A stretch of 64,000 nt of DNA from Nitrospiraceae bacterium (GCA_052389595.1 JBQTHT010000009.1:207-64206), one strand, 5' to 3'. Positions 7,117 through 17,503 are shown, counted from the stretch's first letter. Numbers and translations are program-made. The notes: generated by a model not told the origin, from the sequence alone.

Positions 7117-7320
7117 ATGACTCTGGATGAAGCACGGCAGCGCATTGAATCGGCAATCGAGCAATATGGCCAGCATGCGGGCATGGCTATCGATTTGGTC
7201 ATCAATGAAGTCAGCGGTGATCTTGGCCGGGAGAGCGCCAATACGCTGATCGAGGAGTTTGACCTTGAACTGCTCTATAACATCGCCCCCACGGATTCCC
7301 AAAGTTCGGGCAGTTTCTAA
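7117..7320 (+). CDS. small hypothetical protein
   Basis: 67-aa acidic ORF on the same strand as its neighbours and closely spaced with them. No family recognised. Confidence 0.3.
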   Translation: MTLDEARQRIESAIEQYGQHAGMAIDLVINEVSGDLGRESANTLIEEFDLELLYNIAPTDSQSSGSF

Positions 7321-7341
7321 CTCCGTGGGCGTCGTCCTTCC

Positions 7342-8448
7342 GTGCCATTGATCTGGTGCTCGATTTCCGGCCACGGGTTTGGCCATGCGGCGCAAATGGT
7401 CCCGGTTCTCAATCAGCTCGGCTCTCATCTCCCCCACCTGACGGCTCTTCTTCACACCACTGTTCCAGCCTCATTCTTCCACAACCGTCTGACCATCACA
7501 TGGGAGCGATTCCCGATCGAGCAAGATATCGGGTGCGTGCAACAAGACCCGCTGAAGATTGACGTCGAGGCCACGTGGACCGAGCATCAACGGTTTCATC
7601 GCGAATGGAACAGGAAGCTGGCTGAAGAAGAGGCCGCGATTCGCGCACATCGACCTGACCTCGTGTTCTCGGACATTTCCTATCTGGCTATCGAGGCGGG
7701 CGCCCGAGCCGGCGTGAAGGCAATCGCACTCGGATCCTTGTCATGGGATCTGGTACTCATGCCGTTTGTGCAGCGAGGCAACGGGGACCAGCAGAGATTG
7801 ATCGAATCGATTCAATGCTCCTACAGTCACGCCCAATGCCTCTTGCGCCCCACGCCGGGCCTATCGATGGAGGCATTCCCGCGTGTCATCGATATCGGCC
7901 CGATTGCTGAACCGGCCCGAAACGAAGCTGCTCGCCTGCGTGAAGCCATCGGAGCAGCGGCGACCGAGTGCATGGTGCTCGTGGGATTCGGAGGAATCTC
8001 CATGCAGACGCTGCCCTTCGCTCAAATGGAACAGATGACCACCTACCGGTTCGTGGTTGATGGGCCGGTTCCCGGCGAATGTCGGCGCGTCCATTCAGCC
8101 TCTGCCCTGCCCTTGTCCTTCAAAGTCCTGCTTGCCTCCGCCGACCTCGTCATCACCAAACCCGGATATGGCACGATTACGGAAGCCGTGACGCTTCACA
8201 AACCTGTGGTCTACGTCCGGCGCTATAATTTTGCAGATGAACAGTCACTCGTGGATTACCTGCACCGATACGGGCGCGGCGCCGAATTATCGACAGCAGA
8301 CTTCTTTTCGGGCAATTGGAAGAAGGCCTTGGAAAGTGCGAGAGCGGCGTCTCAGTCACTCGAACGTCCCCCTGCTCCGACCGGTGCTGCGGATGCGGCA
8401 GCACTGCTGGCAACATATTTGCGGAGCGCGGCTCGTTCATCTGCATAG
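7342..8448 (+). CDS. glycosyltransferase (GT1/GT28 MurG-like fold)
   Basis: N-terminal SGHGFGHAAQ and C-terminal ASADLVITKPGYGTITEAV...KP are typical of UDP-sugar GT-B transferases. Confidence 0.55.
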   Translation: MPLIWCSISGHGFGHAAQMVPVLNQLGSHLPHLTALLHTTVPASFFHNRLTITWERFPIEQDIGCVQQDPLKIDVEATWTEHQRFHREWNRKLAEEEAAIRAHRPDLVFSDISYLAIEAGARAGVKAIALGSLSWDLVLMPFVQRGNGDQQRLIESIQCSYSHAQCLLRPTPGLSMEAFPRVIDIGPIAEPARNEAARLREAIGAAATECMVLVGFGGISMQTLPFAQMEQMTTYRFVVDGPVPGECRRVHSASALPLSFKVLLASADLVITKPGYGTITEAVTLHKPVVYVRRYNFADEQSLVDYLHRYGRGAELSTADFFSGNWKKALESARAASQSLERPPAPTGAADAAALLATYLRSAARSSA

Positions 8449-8515
8449 AATGTAAGATCGACAGTGAAACGACGACGATCGGCGGCGTCTCATCACCGGA
8501 TCGGAGCGTGATTTC

Positions 8516-9337
8516 GTGTGTTGGATTGCATGGTTTGTACGACTGGCTGCAAGAGGATTGGATTCACTCGGTCACATGTTTCAGTCGATCGCGTCTGTCC
8601 TCTACAGTCTGTTGCCCGCACTGCTCCCTCCAAGTCACTTAAGCCGCCTTATCGCACGGCACTATGATGTCAGCTATCAGGACAATATCAACGAGTTCAC
8701 TCCCGAGCTGTTCGAATGGGACTTGGACCAGTGGGAGCAGCATGCCTTGGATCGGCATCGGATTGAAAGGGGTCGCATACTCGTGCTGGGAGCGGGAGTG
8801 GGCCGAGAAGCCGTCGCTCTGGCGCGGCGCGGTCTGAGCGTGACCGGCATCGACGTGAATCATGTTGCGCTTCGCACGGCTCGTCGGGTAGCCTCTACAG
8901 CTCACGTTCAGGCTCAATTCATTCAGGCCGACTTTTTGAGGTTACCCTGCCGTCCCCGAAGTTTCGATTATGTGATGTTGTCCGGCATCATGTATAGCGC
9001 TATTCCTGGCCGTGAGTTAAGACAGGCCTGGGTCCGTGACCTTATCGCTTCGCTGCCCTCACGAGGACTCGCCATCTTGAACTTTATGATCGACCAACGC
9101 TCATCAACCAGAACCCAGCGGCTGAGCGGCATATTGACTGCAGTCATCATGAGGTTACCGGGTGCCAACCGCACGTTTCAGATGGGTGACACCTGCGCTC
9201 AAGCGCACTTTCTCCATGCCTTTCAAAACGAACAGGAACTGCGACAAGAGCTCACCATAGACGGGGTCCTCATTCGAGAATTGAACTGGCGCGAACGGTA
9301 TGCCGTCGTGACCTGCAAGACCACATCCCGCGAGTGA
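8516..9337 (+). CDS. class I SAM-dependent methyltransferase
   Basis: Motif I reads ILVLGAGVGREAVALARRGLSVTGIDV. The start could instead be the internal Met at 8576. Confidence 0.7.
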   Translation: MCWIAWFVRLAARGLDSLGHMFQSIASVLYSLLPALLPPSHLSRLIARHYDVSYQDNINEFTPELFEWDLDQWEQHALDRHRIERGRILVLGAGVGREAVALARRGLSVTGIDVNHVALRTARRVASTAHVQAQFIQADFLRLPCRPRSFDYVMLSGIMYSAIPGRELRQAWVRDLIASLPSRGLAILNFMIDQRSSTRTQRLSGILTAVIMRLPGANRTFQMGDTCAQAHFLHAFQNEQELRQELTIDGVLIRELNWRERYAVVTCKTTSRE

Positions 9338-9415: not shown

Positions 9416-9709
9416 TTGATCATGGAACACGTCTACGTGAAGAATTCTGACTTTGTCCAGCGCGATGTCGCGGGTGAGTGCATCCTCGTTCCAATCCGCC
9501 GTCAACTCACCGATGTCAACAGCATTTATGTCCTCAATGAAACCGGCGCCGCGCTCTGGCATCGCATTGACGGAAAGCGCTCCGTGCAGGATATCGTCGA
9601 GGAGGTGTGTCAGGAATTTGAGGTCACTGCCGACCAGTTGATGCAAGACTTTGCCACGCTCCTCGACGATCTTCGCTCCATTAAAGCCATCGAGAGTATC
9701 ACTCCGTAG
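9416..9709 (+). CDS. PqqD-family peptide chaperone (RiPP recognition element)
   Basis: 97-aa ORF with the PqqD pattern (V..R.V.GE.ILVP......YVLNETGA.LW..IDG.RSV.DIV..V..EF.V). It ends 4 nt before the first radical SAM gene. Confidence 0.8.
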   Translation: MIMEHVYVKNSDFVQRDVAGECILVPIRRQLTDVNSIYVLNETGAALWHRIDGKRSVQDIVEEVCQEFEVTADQLMQDFATLLDDLRSIKAIESITP

Positions 9710-9713
9710 TCCT

Positions 9714-10625
9714 ATGCATCACCTGGATGCACTGACGCATATTCCCGAACGGTTCCCGCTTGCCTGTCAATGGGAGATCACCTGCCGGTGCAACCTCCAT
9801 TGCGTGATGTGCTACACGGATTGTTTCAATCGCCCGGATAAGATTCGTGACGAGCTGCTCACTCATGAGATCCTTGAGCTCATGGATGAGCTGGCCGAGG
9901 CCGGCTGTTTGGAAGTGTGCCTGACCGGAGGTGAGCCGCTGGCCCGACCCGATTTTTTCGAGTTGTACGAGCGGGCCGTCAGGAAGGGATTTCTTGTCAC
10001 CGTCTTCACGAACGGGACGTTGATCACCAAAACCGCAGCCGACCGCTTCGCCGCTTTTCCGCCGCATCGCATTGAGATCAGTGTTCACGGTTTCGGGGAA
10101 GAGAATTTCGAGCAGGTCACGGCCGGACACGGATCCTACCAGCGCTGTATGAACGCGATTCGTCTCTTGCGTGAGCGACAGCTTCCGTTGATCGTAAAGA
10201 CGACTGCCATGACGGTCAACATGCCGGACGTTCTGAAGATCAAACGATTCGTGCAACAGCTCGGGTCTGTCGGTTACAAATTAGGCGAAGAGCTTCGTCC
10301 GACACTCGATCACGATCTGTCGCCTCTGCAGCTAGGCCTTTCGGCTGACCAACTCCAAGAATTGAATCGGGCAGACCCAGAACTTTGGCAGGAAGCATGC
10401 TGGAAACAGACCGTACTGCCCGCACCATGTCAAAGCGGGATCCGTTCGTTTCATATCGATGCCTACGGCTCTTTGCAGCTGTGTTCCGGGAATCGAACTC
10501 AGGGCTACGACCTTCGGAGCGGTTCCTTCGCAGAAGGGTTTTATCGCTACCTGCCGACGTTTGCCTGTGAATGGAAATCACGGCGTGCGAGTCTTCTTGT
10601 CAATCCAGCGACCAGCCATGCGTGA
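9714..10625 (+). CDS. radical SAM enzyme with a shortened (Twitch-like) auxiliary cluster domain
   Basis: It has a CNLHCVMC (CX3CX2C) motif and a GGEPL motif. The C-terminal region has C-x12-G-x4-C (PCQSGIRSFHIDAYGSLQLC) but no CX2CX5CX3C block. The start is placed at ATG 9714, in frame with ORF 9651-10625. Confidence 0.85.
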   Translation: MHHLDALTHIPERFPLACQWEITCRCNLHCVMCYTDCFNRPDKIRDELLTHEILELMDELAEAGCLEVCLTGGEPLARPDFFELYERAVRKGFLVTVFTNGTLITKTAADRFAAFPPHRIEISVHGFGEENFEQVTAGHGSYQRCMNAIRLLRERQLPLIVKTTAMTVNMPDVLKIKRFVQQLGSVGYKLGEELRPTLDHDLSPLQLGLSADQLQELNRADPELWQEACWKQTVLPAPCQSGIRSFHIDAYGSLQLCSGNRTQGYDLRSGSFAEGFYRYLPTFACEWKSRRASLLVNPATSHA

Positions 10626-11748: not shown

Positions 11749-11934
11749 ATGAGAGAGAAAAAATCCTACAGTCCTCCGCAACTCTTTCGAGTCGACTTGA
11801 ATCATGAGCAGGCGATCTTAAGCGCATGCAGCTTGATGGCCAGCAATCCTATGGCTGGAGGGATGGACATCTCTTGCCGTGCAGGAAGCTGTAAGAGAGC
11901 CGCGACGGGAGACAGCGGGCTGCGTCCATCCTGA
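11749..11934 (+). CDS. candidate RiPP precursor peptide (61 aa)
   Basis: The sequence is MREKKSYSPPQLFRVDLNHEQAILSACSLMASNPMAGGMDISCRAGSCKRAATGDSGLRPS. It has a strong RBS and sits inside the operon. It carries a YxxPxL motif (Y7, P10, L12), three Cys (27, 43, 48) and a C-terminal Ser. Confidence 0.6.
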   Translation: MREKKSYSPPQLFRVDLNHEQAILSACSLMASNPMAGGMDISCRAGSCKRAATGDSGLRPS

Positions 11935-11994: not shown

Positions 11995-12900
11995 ATGCGC
12001 ATTGATGTCCAGATTGCCGGATATACGATTCGCCTCGAAGAGGCCGCTGATCAGGCTTGCCTATCTTGGCCGCTCAGCCCGTTCGAATCGTTTACGACTC
12101 CATCCTCTGTTGCTCCGGACATTCATTTCGATGTCAGAATCGTGAAGGAACTTTCACCCTGCCGACTCGGTTCGTTGCGCTTCGATGCCTGTCACGGTCT
12201 CTGGAAATTGTTCGAATCCGACACAGGCTTGATCCTGGAATCGGCGGATACACGCACTCTTCAACCGCGACTCCGTGCGTATCTCACCACTGATTTTTCT
12301 CTCGCCGAGGTGTTGGCCTGCGAGCAACAGACGGATGGGATCACCGGCTGGGTTCCGATGCACGTTATCAATCCATTGATGGAAATCTGTCTTGTCACAA
12401 AGCTGGCACGGCAGGGCGGGATTCTGTTGCACGGATCCGGAATACTGGTGAGCGGCCATGGCACGATCTTTACCGGCCCTTCCGGAGCAGGAAAATCTAC
12501 CTTGTCCGCTTTCTTTGCAACCCAACAGGCCACCGTGCTCAGCGACGAACGAGTCATTCTTCGCAAGATGGGGGAAACAGTAGTCGTTCATGGAACTCCG
12601 TGGGTGGGGACCGGTTGCTATGCGAAGAATGAGTCGGGTCCTTTGACGCGACTGTATTGCATACGACATGGTCGCGACCGCCATCGTCTCGACCCGATGC
12701 TCCCTGGTGATGTCTTTCGCTTTCTCCTTCGCCAGTGCTATCTTCCTCACTGGGATCGAGACGCCTTGGACATGACGCTCCGTTTTCTTTCTCTGCTGAT
12801 TCAGCGCGTCGATTGCGCCGGATTGGCGTTTGTGAAAGATCCCGATATCGTAGAATATCTATCGCGCCACCCGCCCTCCCCATCCTTCGCGCTTTCATGA
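11995..12900 (+). CDS. HPr-kinase-related P-loop kinase
   Basis: LHGSGILVSGHGTIFTGPSGAGKSTLSAFF...LSDERV resembles the HprK C-terminal domain-like kinases found in RiPP clusters. Confidence 0.75.
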   Translation: MRIDVQIAGYTIRLEEAADQACLSWPLSPFESFTTPSSVAPDIHFDVRIVKELSPCRLGSLRFDACHGLWKLFESDTGLILESADTRTLQPRLRAYLTTDFSLAEVLACEQQTDGITGWVPMHVINPLMEICLVTKLARQGGILLHGSGILVSGHGTIFTGPSGAGKSTLSAFFATQQATVLSDERVILRKMGETVVVHGTPWVGTGCYAKNESGPLTRLYCIRHGRDRHRLDPMLPGDVFRFLLRQCYLPHWDRDALDMTLRFLSLLIQRVDCAGLAFVKDPDIVEYLSRHPPSPSFALS

Positions 12901-13952
12901 AGCACCTGAAGCCTGATGCCTGGTTGGAATCCGTCACGACGCGAGCCGCCATGCGACGCCGGCCGGAGGGCGTCACCTTCGAGCTGACCTATGGATGCAA
13001 TCTCCGATGTCTTCACTGCTATAACCCGACTCATCGCATCTTACCCGAAGAATTGACGACGGCAGAGGTTGGCGGGGTCCTCGAGCAACTTGCCGAGTTT
13101 GGTGTCCTGAGCATCACCTTCACGGGTGGAGAGCCGTCCGTGCGTCCCGATATTGCCACGATCCTGCGGCAGGCCCGTTCCCACGGATTCGTGATTCAAT
13201 TGTTGACCAACGCCACCCGCATCACGCCTTCTTTCGCCGATGTCCTGGTAGAGACTGGCATTCACCAAGTGAATGTTTCGATCTATGGCGCCACAGAGAT
13301 GACGTATGAACGAATGACCGGAATCCCTGGTTCCTACACACTGTTTCGACAAGGACTTACCTGTTTGGCCTTGCGACAAATATCGGTCAACGTGCGAATG
13401 CCGGTTACCACGCTAAATGAGCATGAAGTGCCGGCATGTCGCGCTCTGATCGAACCTTTTGGTTTCAAATTCCAATATTGCCTCGATGTCATGCCAAGGA
13501 CCAACGGCGACACAACTCCACTGCAATATCGGCTCAGTCCTGAGGCTAAACGGCGGATCGACCAAGCGATGCTCAACCGGTCGGCAGTTGCGATAGAAGA
13601 TCAATGTTCTTCAGATCGCCCGTTTATTGAGTGCGCCTGCGGCAAGACCCGCTTTGCGATCACACCCTATGGCGAAATGAATCTCTGTGTGGCTTTTCCC
13701 ATCCCGAGGTACAACCTTCGCGCAGGCTCGGTGAAGGATGGATGGGAGATCTTGAAGCAGACGGTCGACCATGCTAGGCCCAATGCCAACTATGAATGTC
13801 CGGCCTGTGAGGTGCGGTCTCACTGCCGCCAGGGCCGGAGCGACGCGTGGCTTGAAACCGGCGACATGAGCGCCTGCCTTCCTCATTTCAAAGACTTGGC
13901 TCGGTTGGAACAGACCACCTATGTTGCCATCGACTCTCGACCGGTTCGTTGA
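12897..13952 (+). CDS. radical SAM/SPASM-domain peptide-modifying enzyme
   Basis: It has a CNLRCLHC motif and FTGGEPS. The SPASM elements are GEMNLC and CPACEVRSHC. ATG 12897 overlaps the kinase stop codon (ATGA). Confidence 0.85.
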   Translation: MKHLKPDAWLESVTTRAAMRRRPEGVTFELTYGCNLRCLHCYNPTHRILPEELTTAEVGGVLEQLAEFGVLSITFTGGEPSVRPDIATILRQARSHGFVIQLLTNATRITPSFADVLVETGIHQVNVSIYGATEMTYERMTGIPGSYTLFRQGLTCLALRQISVNVRMPVTTLNEHEVPACRALIEPFGFKFQYCLDVMPRTNGDTTPLQYRLSPEAKRRIDQAMLNRSAVAIEDQCSSDRPFIECACGKTRFAITPYGEMNLCVAFPIPRYNLRAGSVKDGWEILKQTVDHARPNANYECPACEVRSHCRQGRSDAWLETGDMSACLPHFKDLARLEQTTYVAIDSRPVR

Positions 13953-14871
13953 GTCCTACGCGCAGGTCGGCGCCTTGAACACCAGAATTCTTGACCGGCT
14001 CGCTGCGGTCGGGATGCTGTTTCAGCGTGAACAGATTGATTTCCTGTTGTTGAAAGGCGCCGATCTGATTTCCCGCCTGTACGGCATACGGGGAATCAGA
14101 CCGCTCTCCGACGTGGATCTCCTGGTCCGAGAAAAAGATCTGCCACGCATTGATACCCTTCTTCAGTCTTCTGGATTTGTCCAGCAGATAGACGGTAATC
14201 CGGCCTATTGCTCACTGGCAGACCACGTGATGTTGGACATCACCACAGATCTCTGGTATCTCGACCAAACGGACCTTTCTAAGCTGTGGGAACGGGCCAT
14301 CCCGCGCCGGATCGGCGGCCGAATGATGAAATGCATGGGAAGTGAAGACCTCGTGCTGTATCTCACGGCCTATGCGGTGATCCATCGCGGACAGCTTTCA
14401 CCCTCCTTTTATACTGACCTCGCCTTGCTGCTTCAACGTGAACCGGTGGAATGGCCCATGATCAGTCAACGTGCTGCCCAGGGTGGGTTGAGAACGGCCC
14501 TGTATCATGGCCTCACCTCGTTGTCCCGGTCGGGATACCATCCCGTGCCGGATCGCTACCTTCAACAATTGGCGCCATCGACGATGTCCGAACGCGGTCT
14601 GTGGTTTCTTTTACGAAAGGTCGTGACGAAGGAATGGCTACCGGAGATCGGGCATGTTCTGCTGTTGCTCACCACTCCGGGTAGAAGGAAATGGCATCGA
14701 CTGTGGGCGCTTATCTGTCCTTCAACGAGATTCCTCGGTTATCGGTATGGGAAACAGGGCACTGAGCATGCCATCCGTACAAGAGTGGCGCGCCTGGGTA
14801 TACTCTTCGCTCGAGGCGTTCGATTAAGTATCCACCTTCTGATGTTGACCCTGACACCCACCCGGCGATGA
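13921..14871 (+). CDS. nucleotidyltransferase-family protein (PF14907-like)
   Basis: LLLKGADLISRLYG.....RPLSDVDLLVREKDL matches the uncharacterised nucleotidyltransferase family seen in lasso and kinase-associated RiPP clusters. It overlaps the upstream gene by 32 nt. Confidence 0.65.
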   Translation: MLPSTLDRFVESYAQVGALNTRILDRLAAVGMLFQREQIDFLLLKGADLISRLYGIRGIRPLSDVDLLVREKDLPRIDTLLQSSGFVQQIDGNPAYCSLADHVMLDITTDLWYLDQTDLSKLWERAIPRRIGGRMMKCMGSEDLVLYLTAYAVIHRGQLSPSFYTDLALLLQREPVEWPMISQRAAQGGLRTALYHGLTSLSRSGYHPVPDRYLQQLAPSTMSERGLWFLLRKVVTKEWLPEIGHVLLLLTTPGRRKWHRLWALICPSTRFLGYRYGKQGTEHAIRTRVARLGILFARGVRLSIHLLMLTLTPTRR

Positions 14872-15737
14872 TCCGGCTGCTTTGCCCAGACCCATTGCGC
14901 ACGGCTTTTTCAGCCGCCGACCTCACCCCCGTCACGGCTGCTGAACTGTCTCACCTGGTTGAATTTACCGTCACCAGCTGGAGCATGCTCCCGGCTATTC
15001 ATAAAGGTGATCGCGTGCGCTTCGAGCCGGTCGAGACACTCATGGTCGGCGACATCGTCGTGTTTCGCAAGGAAGGATCTCTTATCTGCCATCGAATTAT
15101 CGCCGTCACCGATACCGGCATGGTCGAAGTAAAAGGAGATGGTAACCAGGGAAGTGGGGAGGTCATGGCCCCGTCGCAGATACTTGGGAGGGTATGCGGG
15201 ATCGCTCGATCACAAGATTGTATTCCGAAACCATCTACAGGCAACCAGGACCGCCAGGTCGATCTCTTGGTCGTCGTCCTGCAGTATTGGGTCGCGTCGG
15301 TACGAGCGACGACGCTGGTAGCATGTGGCTGCTTGATTTCAGCTCTGAAACAATATGGGTGGATTTGCCGTCTCTTTTCGCATGCGACGAAGCAGAGCGT
15401 TCGCTTTTCCCTTAGCCGACGAGCGCCCCTGCAATCAATCCGGGGTTACTACAGAATGGGAGGACGGGGTCACCGCTTGCATGACCTCCTCCGGCTGATT
15501 CAAGAGCACGAGGTGGTGCTTGAAGCGCTGGTGGTCCAAGCTCACCTGGGACCTTACCCAATTGCCTTCTATCATCCCGCCTCCGGCGAACAGCATATCC
15601 GGCGTACGCTTCACGGATTGGGCATCGAAGAATGTTTCAACGTATTGGGACAGGCATGGCCTCGCTCGACCCGAGTCCATTGTCACCAAAAAGACCATCT
15701 GTTATCGGATCGCCAACAGTTTTCTTCCCTGCGGTAG
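14868..15737 (+). CDS. S26/S24-type serine peptidase domain protein with an unknown C-terminal half
   Basis: SWSMLPAIHKGDRVRFEP....VGDIVVF...GSLICHRII resembles the signal peptidase I / LexA-like fold. Its start overlaps the upstream gene (ATGA). Confidence 0.6.
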   Translation: MIRLLCPDPLRTAFSAADLTPVTAAELSHLVEFTVTSWSMLPAIHKGDRVRFEPVETLMVGDIVVFRKEGSLICHRIIAVTDTGMVEVKGDGNQGSGEVMAPSQILGRVCGIARSQDCIPKPSTGNQDRQVDLLVVVLQYWVASVRATTLVACGCLISALKQYGWICRLFSHATKQSVRFSLSRRAPLQSIRGYYRMGGRGHRLHDLLRLIQEHEVVLEALVVQAHLGPYPIAFYHPASGEQHIRRTLHGLGIEECFNVLGQAWPRSTRVHCHQKDHLLSDRQQFSSLR

Positions 15738-15875
15738 GGATTTCTCCCTTACCCGACTTTCTCTAAAATTTCTCTGTACTTAAGTATGCATCTCTTTGGA
15801 CGATCCGTCCGTAGAATGATATGATTGCGGCGTGTCCTTTACTTACGCAGTAGGGGCACCAAAAGGTTCGCTCGA

Positions 15876-16478
15876 ATGGAAGCTTCACCACAGCACGCCG
15901 CAACGTCCATTGACCCAAAACTGATTGCCCGCGTCGTCAAGGGTGATGCACATGCATTCACCCAATTGTACGATCAGTCCTGTTCGCTGCTATACACGTT
16001 GGCATTGCGTATATTAGGAAACCGCGATGAAGTGGCCGAGCTGCTTCAAGATGTCTATCTGGAGGTATGGCGCAAGAGCGCCCGGTACGATGTCGGACGG
16101 GGAACCCCGATCGCATGGCTTGTGACTTTAACCAGGAGCCGTGCCATTGACCGTTTACGAACCCGGGCTTCGCGTCCTCAGGCCGTGGCGGACTCGATGG
16201 ACAACCTCACGACGATTCATATTCCAGACCAGGGGCCGGGACCGTTTGAACATCATGCGGACACGGAAGTTCGCCATCAGGTTGCGAGCGCGCTCGGGGC
16301 GCTTCCCGCAGCGCAACAGCAAGCGCTGGAAATGGCCTTCTACGAAGGTTTGTCGCATGTGGAAATTGCAGCCCGACTCAATCAACCCTTAGGTACGATT
16401 AAAACCAGGATCAAGCTCGGCATGACCAAATTGCGAACGGCATTACGAGGCTGCTGGGACTTAGGTGACGAGCCATGA
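15876..16478 (+). CDS. ECF-type RNA polymerase sigma factor
   Basis: Sigma-70 region 2 reads LLQDVYLEVWRKSARYD......WLVTLTRSRAIDRLR. Region 4 reads LPAAQQQALEMAFYEGLSHVEIAARLNQPLGTIKTRI. Confidence 0.85.
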   Translation: MEASPQHAATSIDPKLIARVVKGDAHAFTQLYDQSCSLLYTLALRILGNRDEVAELLQDVYLEVWRKSARYDVGRGTPIAWLVTLTRSRAIDRLRTRASRPQAVADSMDNLTTIHIPDQGPGPFEHHADTEVRHQVASALGALPAAQQQALEMAFYEGLSHVEIAARLNQPLGTIKTRIKLGMTKLRTALRGCWDLGDEP

Positions 16479-17503
16479 CACACGAAGAACTGGACGAGGC
16501 AGTGGCGCTGTATGCAGTCGGCGCGTTGGATCGCGCGGAGCGGCAACTCCTTGAAGCACATCTGCTTTCGGGATGTTCCTCATGCCATGCCTCACTCAAG
16601 GAATATCAGGCCGTGGCCACGTTGCTTCCATTCGGTTTACCGCTTTCCTCGCCGCCGCGCGCGCTCAAAACCAAGATCATGGCGGCTCGCACGCCCGCGA
16701 TTCCGAGTCCGTCTGAGACTGTCAAAGAACCCGGCACACCAAGCCTAGAGCCGGGCGAATGGATGAATCATCTCTTCCCGCCGATCACACCCACTCGCTC
16801 TCTTCCGTTCAGATTTGCGATGGGTTTTGCCGCTTTAGCGATTGTTGCCGTGACAGGATATGTCGGGTGGTCCCTGTATTCTCGGGTGGCAACGGAAAGT
16901 GGAAAGGTAGAGCAGTTGCAAACGGCCTTACAAAAGGACACGACGAAGCTTGCCTCTTTTCAGCGGGAGCTGTCCGAACGGGAGACCGCCTTGGGCAGAC
17001 TGCGCCAGGAATTACAACAACGTAACACCGACATCCAGGAGTTTCGCGACATCGTGATCCAGCGCGAAGCGGAGTTGGACGACTTGCGTAACCAACTGGC
17101 ACTTCTGGAAAAGGCCTCCAGCGCAACGCGCAAAGGACGCTCACAGCAAGATGAATTGGCGACACTGTTGCGGGCGCCGGACGTGCGCGTCGTAACCTTA
17201 GCCGGATCGAGTATTGCCAAAGGCGCCAGCGGCTTGTTGCTCTACGATCCTCATACAAAGAAAGCATGGCTCTACGCCGTTAATCTCCCGGAATGTCCAA
17301 GTGGTACGATTTATCAAGTTTGGGGTATCGATGAGAAACCTGTGAGTGTCGATACGTTTCATATCGACACTGGGCAAACGGCGCATTTGTTGAGCAAGCG
17401 ATTACCCGACTTTCCCCGTATGAAACAATTCGCGGTCAGCCTCGAACCGGTCGGTGGCCGTCCCCAACCAACCGGCGCGATTTATCTTCAAGGTCAGCTC
17501 TAA
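16475..17503 (+). CDS. anti-sigma factor (zf-HC2 N-terminus, RskA-like C-terminus)
   Basis: LYAVGALDRAERQLLEAHLLSGCSSCHASLKEY is followed by a TM segment and a coiled-coil. The C-terminal part reads ...YQVWGIDEKPVSVDTF. Its start overlaps the sigma gene (ATGA). Confidence 0.8.
   Translation: MTHEELDEAVALYAVGALDRAERQLLEAHLLSGCSSCHASLKEYQAVATLLPFGLPLSSPPRALKTKIMAARTPAIPSPSETVKEPGTPSLEPGEWMNHLFPPITPTRSLPFRFAMGFAALAIVAVTGYVGWSLYSRVATESGKVEQLQTALQKDTTKLASFQRELSERETALGRLRQELQQRNTDIQEFRDIVIQREAELDDLRNQLALLEKASSATRKGRSQQDELATLLRAPDVRVVTLAGSSIAKGASGLLLYDPHTKKAWLYAVNLPECPSGTIYQVWGIDEKPVSVDTFHIDTGQTAHLLSKRLPDFPRMKQFAVSLEPVGGRPQPTGAIYLQGQL

Follow-up and report, generated by a model that had tools for sequence, protein, structure and literature searches.

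A core ScmC-family phosphotransferase and a PF14907 nucleotidyltransferase in a radical SAM peptide operon of Nitrospiraceae, with the conserved C-terminal serine of the precursor as their putative target

In a 64,000-nucleotide stretch of DNA from a Nitrospiraceae bacterium (JBQTHT010000009.1), referred to here as the window and numbered along its whole length, a gene for a protein resembling the kinase HprK (residues 161–169, GPSGAGKST) and a gene for a PF14907-type nucleotidyltransferase (NTase; residues 62–69, LSDVDLLV) are situated on either side of a gene for a radical S-adenosylmethionine (radical SAM, rSAM) enzyme that we call rSAM-3. This arrangement is as described in the original prediction, which was made from the sequence of the window and proposed that the pair decorates the C-terminus of an rSAM-crosslinked peptide; the proposal itself is supported in part. 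In a cassette that occurs in many phyla, we find this kinase-like protein to be one of the core members, alongside the rSAM enzyme or enzymes and a PqqD-family protein, and its sequence together with a predicted structure support well its assignment as a P-loop phosphotransferase of the HprK/phosphoenolpyruvate (PEP) carboxykinase fold, belonging to the Pfam family ScmC. The region (11995–14871) is best explained as the 3' half of a single operon whose product is a peptide made by ribosomes and then modified by enzymes (RiPP); the terminal serine of this peptide, Ser61, may be the residue that the pair modifies. The genes on which the argument turns are the following; all genes of the row are on the + strand.

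9416–9709, + strand: PqqD-family leader-binding protein (RiPP recognition element); PF05402, E 2.2e-17, with conserved synteny
11749–11934, + strand: precursor peptide gene, 61 amino acids, called from its open reading frame (ORF), ribosome-binding site and homologous copies
11995–12900, + strand: HprK/PEP carboxykinase-fold P-loop phosphotransferase, 301 amino acids, ScmC (PF27840), putative Ser61 kinase, assigned from its label, fold and conserved residues
12897–13952 (likely start), + strand: rSAM-3, a third radical SAM/SPASM-type maturase; PF04055, E 7.5e-23
13921–14871, + strand: PF14907 (NTP_transf_5) nucleotidyltransferase, 316 amino acids; PF14907, E 4.9e-31

Because an identical gene order recurs in 25 Nitrospiraceae loci and the family is widespread, the locus is not a chance assembly of genes. 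The kinase-like gene is present, as a single copy, in 83 of 301 Nitrospiraceae genomes (28% of those sampled), several single-contig genomes among them, and in 17 of 39 genera, and the ScmC family is found in 92 of 401 sampled Acidobacteriota genomes (23%); about 8,800 cluster representatives match the protein of the window at E <= 0.001. Genes for PqqD, rSAM, a small peptide and ScmC follow one another in that order in all seven metagenome loci that we compared. Among 30 Acidobacteriota loci taken with 1.5-kb flanks, an rSAM gene lies directly 5' in 29, the exception having no upstream DNA, and the order rSAM–precursor–ScmC is seen in 20 of 20 Acidobacteriota loci re-fetched with 9.5-kb flanks, as well as in the Nitrospiraceae loci that extend 5' of the kinase gene. 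Those 20 loci include 17 with a PqqD gene, 16 with an S24 peptidase gene next to the kinase-like gene and 11 with an NTase gene.

The association goes as far as fusion, since one genome (G168:C13) encodes a natural rSAM–ScmC protein of 696 amino acids (L086, 1195–3285) with a Radical_SAM domain at residues 69–219 and a full ScmC domain at residues 402–693 (hhalign 99.9%). The fusion gene is followed by a second rSAM gene and a PqqD gene, and several other Acidobacteriota matches lie in open frames of 650–720 amino acids. As the ScmC-family protein always adjoins an rSAM gene and a precursor gene where flanking DNA is available, and is once fused to the former, we regard it as a core component and not an add-on. 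In this respect we depart from the original prediction, in which the kinase was a tailoring enzyme. The three rSAM proteins of the window are each 31–39% identical to the single rSAM of simpler cassettes (31–33% for rSAM-3), and judged by these comparisons the cassette of Nitrospiraceae seems to be the simple one in enlarged form.

The assignment of the kinase-like protein draws on several kinds of evidence. A precomputed Pfam label, PF27840.1, is carried by the protein of the window and by most of its listed homologues, and PF27840 is named ScmC in the neighbourhood tables. An AlphaFold2 model of high confidence (pLDDT, the predicted local distance difference test, 94) finds as its best Foldseek matches in the PDB the HPr kinase/phosphorylase HprK/P (1KKL, E 3e-6) and ATP-dependent PEP carboxykinase, the latter matching over the full length with TM-scores on the query of 0.40–0.47; a sequence search of the PDB gives only P-loop-level matches. 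When aligned to HprK/P of L. casei (1JB1), His146 corresponds to His140, the Walker A motifs match, and Asp184-Glu185 correspond to Asp178-Asp179. Over a set of 50 homologues with 24–57% identity, H146, G166, K167, T169, D184 and the sequence GTPW at 200–203 are invariant and position 185 is Asp or Glu in all. The catalytic residues that an active kinase of this fold would need are thus present on alignment, invariant or conservatively replaced throughout the family, and the retention of the Asp-Asp/Glu pair, whose equivalent is required in the lasso peptide kinase PsmK, counts in favour of a phosphorylation step. Matches to curated models are weak: 19.3 bits to PF07475 against a cut-off of 33.3, 24 bits to TIGR00679 against 240, 24.9 bits to TIGR04352 (HprK-related kinase A) against 200, and E 2.5e-7 to TIGR04355, while the NCBIfam ScmC model matches 32 of the 50 family members weakly, with a best E of 1.8e-7.

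The precursor gene has a strong ribosome-binding site, AAAGGAGG, 5' of its ATG. It begins with a leader of the form KKxYxPPQLFRVxLNxEQAILSAC, contains three cysteines and ends in GDSGLRPS, the last residue being Ser61. One to three homologous copies are found per locus in the 25 Nitrospiraceae loci, with a variable middle of the core and a tail motif [GS]DSGxR[PAQV]S. A terminal serine is present in 27 of 28 aligned full-length Nitrospiraceae precursors and in 27 of 27 intact copies. The single copy that lacks it (L019, 4669–4818) stops early (...RVQAKCH) in a low-coverage assembly, and this early stop probably reflects a frameshift or a fault in the assembly. Short additional ORFs with core and tail and lacking a leader occur at L017 7489–7778, at L006 7868–7987, and at L024 7478–7582 and 7899–7988; they mostly end in ...GDSGxRxS or a close variant, and they may be decaying duplicates or ORFs with mis-called start codons.

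Conservation of the last residue extends beyond the family. A set of 27 distinct precursors from the seven metagenome loci and from Acidobacteriota genomes (in 7 of 30 Acidobacteriota loci a simple ORF scan found no precursor) has a common leader, …KPxL…PEEAVLxxCK…, with variable cores and three cysteines in 25 of the 27; of these 27 precursors, 25 end in Ser and two in Thr. In these precursors from outside Nitrospiraceae (L027–L065) the last cysteine is placed exactly five residues before the terminal Ser or Thr in 23 of 27, giving C-x3-[GA]-[ST]; in Nitrospiraceae the spacing from the last cysteine to the terminal serine varies from about 12 to 25 residues and it is instead the GDSGxRPS tail that is conserved. 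On reading the sequences, no hydroxyl residue other than the terminal one keeps a fixed position throughout the two precursor sets. Serine is retained at the end in loci without an NTase gene or without a peptidase gene, and so far as these sequences go the terminal serine is tied to the kinase-like gene and independent of the NTase and peptidase genes. The expectation that Ser61 would be conserved in orthologous precursors is therefore borne out by both sets, and the proposal that the ...GLRPS end fits the substrate rule of the lasso peptide kinases agrees with precursors that all end in Ser or, in two cases, in Thr.

The NTase matches PF14907 with E 4.9e-31 and 108.6 bits against a gathering cut-off of 31.2. 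Across 15 sequences, from Nitrospiraceae and from distant loci, K45, G46, Y54, R60, D64, D66 and V69 are invariant, and these include the G...DxD motif of the Pol-beta type, G-x(9-20)-D-x-D. Its AlphaFold2 model (pLDDT 87) has as best Foldseek matches LnuA, MenT1, ANT(2'')-Ia and FKRP, with a sequence search of the PDB returning only a marginal match to LnuA; ANT(2'') is the fold class given by Zyubko et al. for PsmN (PMC6993621), the NTase of the lasso peptide pseudomycoidin. No Nitrospiraceae locus that reaches far enough 3' lacks the gene, and elsewhere it occurs in 5 of the 7 metagenome loci and the 11 Acidobacteriota loci already mentioned (about 55–70%). At 316–321 amino acids, the Nitrospiraceae NTases are without an N-terminal helical region of about 90 residues that PF14907 proteins from other loci and from a lasso cluster possess, and the Pfam match to the NTase of the window starts at profile position 35.

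The precedent for such a pair comes from pseudomycoidin, in which PsmK phosphorylates the C-terminal serine and the PF14907-type PsmN puts one or more hexoses on the phosphate (PMC6993621; PMC8498205), so that the statement in the original prediction on a Bacillus system with a kinase and an NTase-fold enzyme is correct. The Asp-Asp pair of PsmK is essential for phosphorylation, the D134A/D136A mutant of PsmN is inactive, and the NTase-dependent modification needs prior phosphorylation and sits on the phosphate (PMC6993621). As a yardstick we used a canonical lasso cluster of Paenibacillus cellulosilyticus, which was reached through a weak plasmid match and has the order NTase, lasso cyclase, precursor (...TVTIS), HprK-like kinase, PqqD (B1), B2 and ABC exporter; the plasmid search gave weak partial matches only, which pointed to this cluster and to a kinase–NTase pair in Vibrio. 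The alignment of the NTase to the lasso-cluster NTase is strong (hhalign 99.7%, E 4e-27) and that of the ScmC family to the lasso kinase (97%, E 8.5e-11) covers the P-loop domain alone. By these profile comparisons the pair is homologous to the lasso pair, the kinase distantly so. With no cyclase or B2 homologue in the window, the system as a whole does not belong to the lasso type.

Because the NTase belongs to the Pfam family of PsmN, Ser61 is conserved and the lasso kinases offer a parallel, we propose the following pathway. The ScmC-family protein would phosphorylate the side-chain hydroxyl of the last residue, Ser61, at the expense of ATP, in analogy to the lasso kinases PadeK and PsmK. 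The PF14907 enzyme would then add a hexose-type or nucleotide-derived group onto the phosphate through a phosphodiester or pyrophosphate link, and the glycosyltransferase and methyltransferase encoded upstream may extend this decoration. The three rSAM enzymes would cross-link the cysteine-containing core, and a SipW-type peptidase would cut off the leader. For the whole chain, from Ser61 phosphorylation and NTase decoration to rSAM cross-linking and leader removal, the sequences, the models and the lasso analogy together make a case that we judge to be somewhat better than evenly balanced.

Several points weigh against this pathway. The kinase-like protein falls under every curated cut-off, whether for HprK, HprK-related kinases A and B, or ScmC, and its likeness to the lasso kinase is limited to the P-loop domain (121 columns, 24% identity). 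The invariant GTPW-x-G is peculiar to the family and is not seen in the lasso kinase, and its substrate or reaction could therefore differ. In Nitrospiraceae it is the entire last octapeptide that is conserved, beyond the serine alone, and the terminal serine could be conserved for the sake of a different step, be it cross-linking, export or recognition by the peptidase. The published data on PsmN leave open whether PsmN itself transfers the hexose (PMC6993621), and a full-text literature search found no paper on this combination of enzymes, on its chemistry or on ScmC.

In an alternative reading, the ScmC-family protein would not be a peptide kinase but an ATP-binding partner of the rSAM and PqqD proteins, acting as a scaffold, as a chaperone or in export coupling, with the serine kept as a cross-link acceptor or as a signal for the peptidase or exporter. 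An obligatory rSAM linkage that goes as far as fusion is unusual for a tailoring kinase, and beside GTPW-x-G there are further family-specific invariants outside the HprK core (W70, F33 and F63), which together with the missed kinase cut-offs speak for such a role. However, the full conservation of the histidine, of the Walker A Lys and Thr and of the Asp-Asp/Glu pair is hard to square with a non-catalytic scaffold, the nearest folds, HprK/P and PEP carboxykinase, are both phosphotransferases, and the only hydroxyl residue that we read as fixed across the phyla sampled is the terminal Ser/Thr, as the lasso kinase substrate rule would have it, so that we think a non-kinase role unlikely. A different possibility accepts the phosphorylation, of the terminal serine or of another Ser/Thr, and takes it as mere activation: elimination would yield a dehydro-amino acid, its capture by a cysteine would give a lanthionine-like ring or a further conversion product, and the product would carry no phosphate. 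Phosphorylation followed by elimination is the route of the class III and class IV lanthipeptide synthetases, and the fixed C-x3-[GA]-[ST] of 23 of the 27 outside-family precursors is the kind of spacing expected for a ring. Against this, the loci showed neither a lyase nor a cyclase domain, the cysteine-to-serine distance of about 12–25 residues in Nitrospiraceae does not suit it, and the frequent NTase fits better with a lasting phosphate, as in pseudomycoidin (PMC6993621); we consider elimination to be quite improbable.

It may also be asked whether the NTase works independently of the kinase, by direct nucleotidylylation of a peptide hydroxyl, by LicD/FKRP-like transfer of an alcohol phosphate from a CDP or other NDP donor, or on a non-peptide target in immunity or the cell envelope. 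Its nearest structures are small-molecule O-nucleotidyltransferases (LnuA, ANT(2'')-Ia) and the ribitol-phosphate transferase FKRP, 9 of 20 Acidobacteriota loci and 2 of 7 metagenome loci have no NTase gene, and the gene sometimes lies kilobases away or on the other strand. Yet the only studied relative, PsmN, needs prior phosphorylation and has its product on the phosphate (PMC6993621), an HprK-like gene and a PF14907 gene lie adjacent, without an rSAM gene, on a Vibrio plasmid, which argues that the two work together, and all Nitrospiraceae operons include the NTase gene, in overlap with the genes on either side. An independent NTase thus seems to us very unlikely. A more far-reaching model would make phosphorylation of the terminal Ser/Thr the defining and obligatory step of a new rSAM peptide class of many phyla, with the phosphoserine serving as a handle for the PF14907 enzyme, the glycosyltransferase and methyltransferase of Nitrospira extending the decoration, and a cross-linked peptide–glycan conjugate as the product; we put this model forward tentatively, as a possible but rather doubtful extension.

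The remaining genes of the row, which is tightly packed and spans 7.1–17.5 kb on the ORF map, are as follows.

From 7117, + strand: small acidic ORF, first in the row, 5' of the glycosyltransferase gene
7342–8448, + strand: GT-B-like glycosyltransferase, with weak glycosyltransferase matches (TIGR00661, E 2.8e-8, under its cut-off)
8516–9337, + strand: class I SAM methyltransferase; Methyltransf_25, E 1.2e-13
9651–10625 (ORF), + strand: rSAM-1, true start uncertain; PF04055
10459–11736 (ORF), + strand: rSAM-2, true start uncertain; PF04055 (E 3e-26 and 1.1e-22 for rSAM-1 and rSAM-2)
14868–15737, + strand: S24/S26 peptidase, archaeal/SipW-type signal-peptidase-like; PF00717, E 3.9e-7, and TIGR02228, E 2.3e-12
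15825–17503: extracytoplasmic function (ECF) sigma/anti-sigma pair, 3' of the peptidase gene

Neighbouring genes overlap from the kinase-like gene onwards. The kinase stop codon TGA (12898–12900) shares the sequence ATGA (12897–12900) with an in-frame ATG of rSAM-3, the NTase gene starts 32 nucleotides inside the end of rSAM-3, and the peptidase ATG at 14868 overlaps the NTase stop codon. The longest ORF for rSAM-3 runs from a GTG at 12735 to 13952, and the ATG at 12897 is its likely true start; the protein has many further rSAM/SPASM matches among the NCBIfam models, all of them under cut-off. A promoter and terminator scan gave nothing inside the gene row that exceeds the shuffled background. 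The peptidase, which scores 47 bits against TIGR02228 (cut-off 51.85), is probably the enzyme that removes the leader.

Upstream of the PqqD gene, the small acidic ORF, the glycosyltransferase gene and the methyltransferase gene (7117–9337) are conserved in L001–L024, and the glycosyltransferase and methyltransferase genes keep a constant order in nearly all Nitrospiraceae loci with enough upstream DNA; these two genes encode possible further tailoring enzymes. A different, PRMT-like methyltransferase gene comes after ScmC in one other locus, L033. The ECF sigma and anti-sigma genes follow directly 3' of the peptidase gene in nearly all far-reaching Nitrospiraceae loci (L004–L024), and their conservation suggests either that the operon has dedicated regulation or that its product regulates. 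In 5 of the 7 metagenome loci, which come from different samples, a gene for a very large protein of secreted type that contains a Peptidase_C25 (gingipain-like) domain lies within a few kb of the ScmC cassette, at the positions given below; such proteins may recur as neighbours or partners of the cassette.

L027, 10264–16891: Peptidase_C25 protein
L028, 11737–16945: Peptidase_C25 protein
L029, 13470–16882: Peptidase_C25 protein
L030, 7455–12851: Peptidase_C25 protein
L032, 9643–12792: Peptidase_C25 protein

To date, lasso peptides are the only peptides for which decoration of the last serine by a kinase and an NTase has been demonstrated, and if it holds for rSAM cross-linked peptides the two enzymes would constitute a portable module for tailoring C-termini. 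Nitrite-oxidising Nitrospira commonly have the system, which in them stands beside the conserved ECF sigma/anti-sigma pair. A single biochemical result would suggest a function for thousands of "hypothetical proteins" and give key nitrifying bacteria a defined peptide product. What we have before us are known tailoring enzymes in an uncharacterised rSAM setting that has been catalogued but is unstudied.

Among known systems, HprK/P (1KKL, 1JB1) shares with the kinase-like protein the P-loop fold and the aligned histidine, Walker A motif and acidic pair. The N-terminal domain is different, however, and the whole kinase-like protein resembles a small PEP carboxykinase; its presumed substrate is a peptide tail, where that of HprK/P is HPr. 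A housekeeping HprK/P is rejected by the TIGR00679 score given above (24 against 240 bits). A likeness in gene arrangement is offered by the plasmid pVa1 of Vibrio alfacsensis, on which genes for an HprK-like kinase (HPr-rel-A) and a PF14907 NTase are adjacent and co-oriented, although, unlike in the window, no radical SAM gene lies beside them. In that locus (L035, 6692–8660) the genes, annotated as 'HprK-related kinase A' and PF14907 NTase, overlap and adjoin a gene for a hypothetical protein, and no rSAM, cyclase or PqqD is annotated nearby.

Lasso peptides provide the sole experimental precedent for the kinase/NTase pair (PMC6993621, PMC8498205). In common with the pseudomycoidin (psm) and paeninodin (pade) clusters, the system has an HprK-like P-loop kinase, a PF14907 NTase, a PqqD protein and a Ser-ending precursor, as well as the catalytic Asp pair, the DxD motif of the NTase, and a constant kinase with an optional NTase, which is also the rule in lasso systems (PMC8498205). 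Unlike those clusters, in which the kinase is accessory, it has the kinase-like protein as a core component, and the window has rSAM genes and is without the Asn-synthase-type lasso cyclase and the B2 protease. With the Paenibacillus cyclase and B2 as queries, a tblastn search confined to the 64-kb window gave no match at E <= 1e-3, and the distant loci have no adjacent cyclase or B2 gene, the single cyclase-like match (L085) being 7 kb away; a lasso peptide system is rejected on these grounds.

The remaining comparison is with SynChlorMet (SCM). Haft's SynChlorMet families and Pfam ScmC already record in silico that HprK-like proteins go together with PqqD and rSAM/SPASM enzymes, so that of the statement in the original prediction that the tailoring pair had not been described together with radical SAM chemistry, the part concerning its uncharacterised state stands, and novelty of the link itself does not. 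The families of the SCM cassette, ScmC (TIGR04249), ScmD (TIGR04248), ScmE (TIGR04250) and ScmF (TIGR04251), were defined purely in silico. The window scores 17.5 bits against a cut-off of 125 for ScmC, 29.6 against 100 for ScmD, 98.1 against 400 for ScmE and 76.4 against 400 for ScmF, and as all four NCBIfam cut-offs are widely missed a true SCM-cassette equivalog is rejected. To our knowledge the SCM definition names neither a precursor nor an NTase. The locus of the window is like SCM in combining an HprK-like ScmC protein with a PqqD homologue and at least two PqqE-like rSAM/SPASM enzymes, and goes beyond it in adding a third rSAM, the NTase, a glycosyltransferase, a methyltransferase and a SipW-type peptidase.

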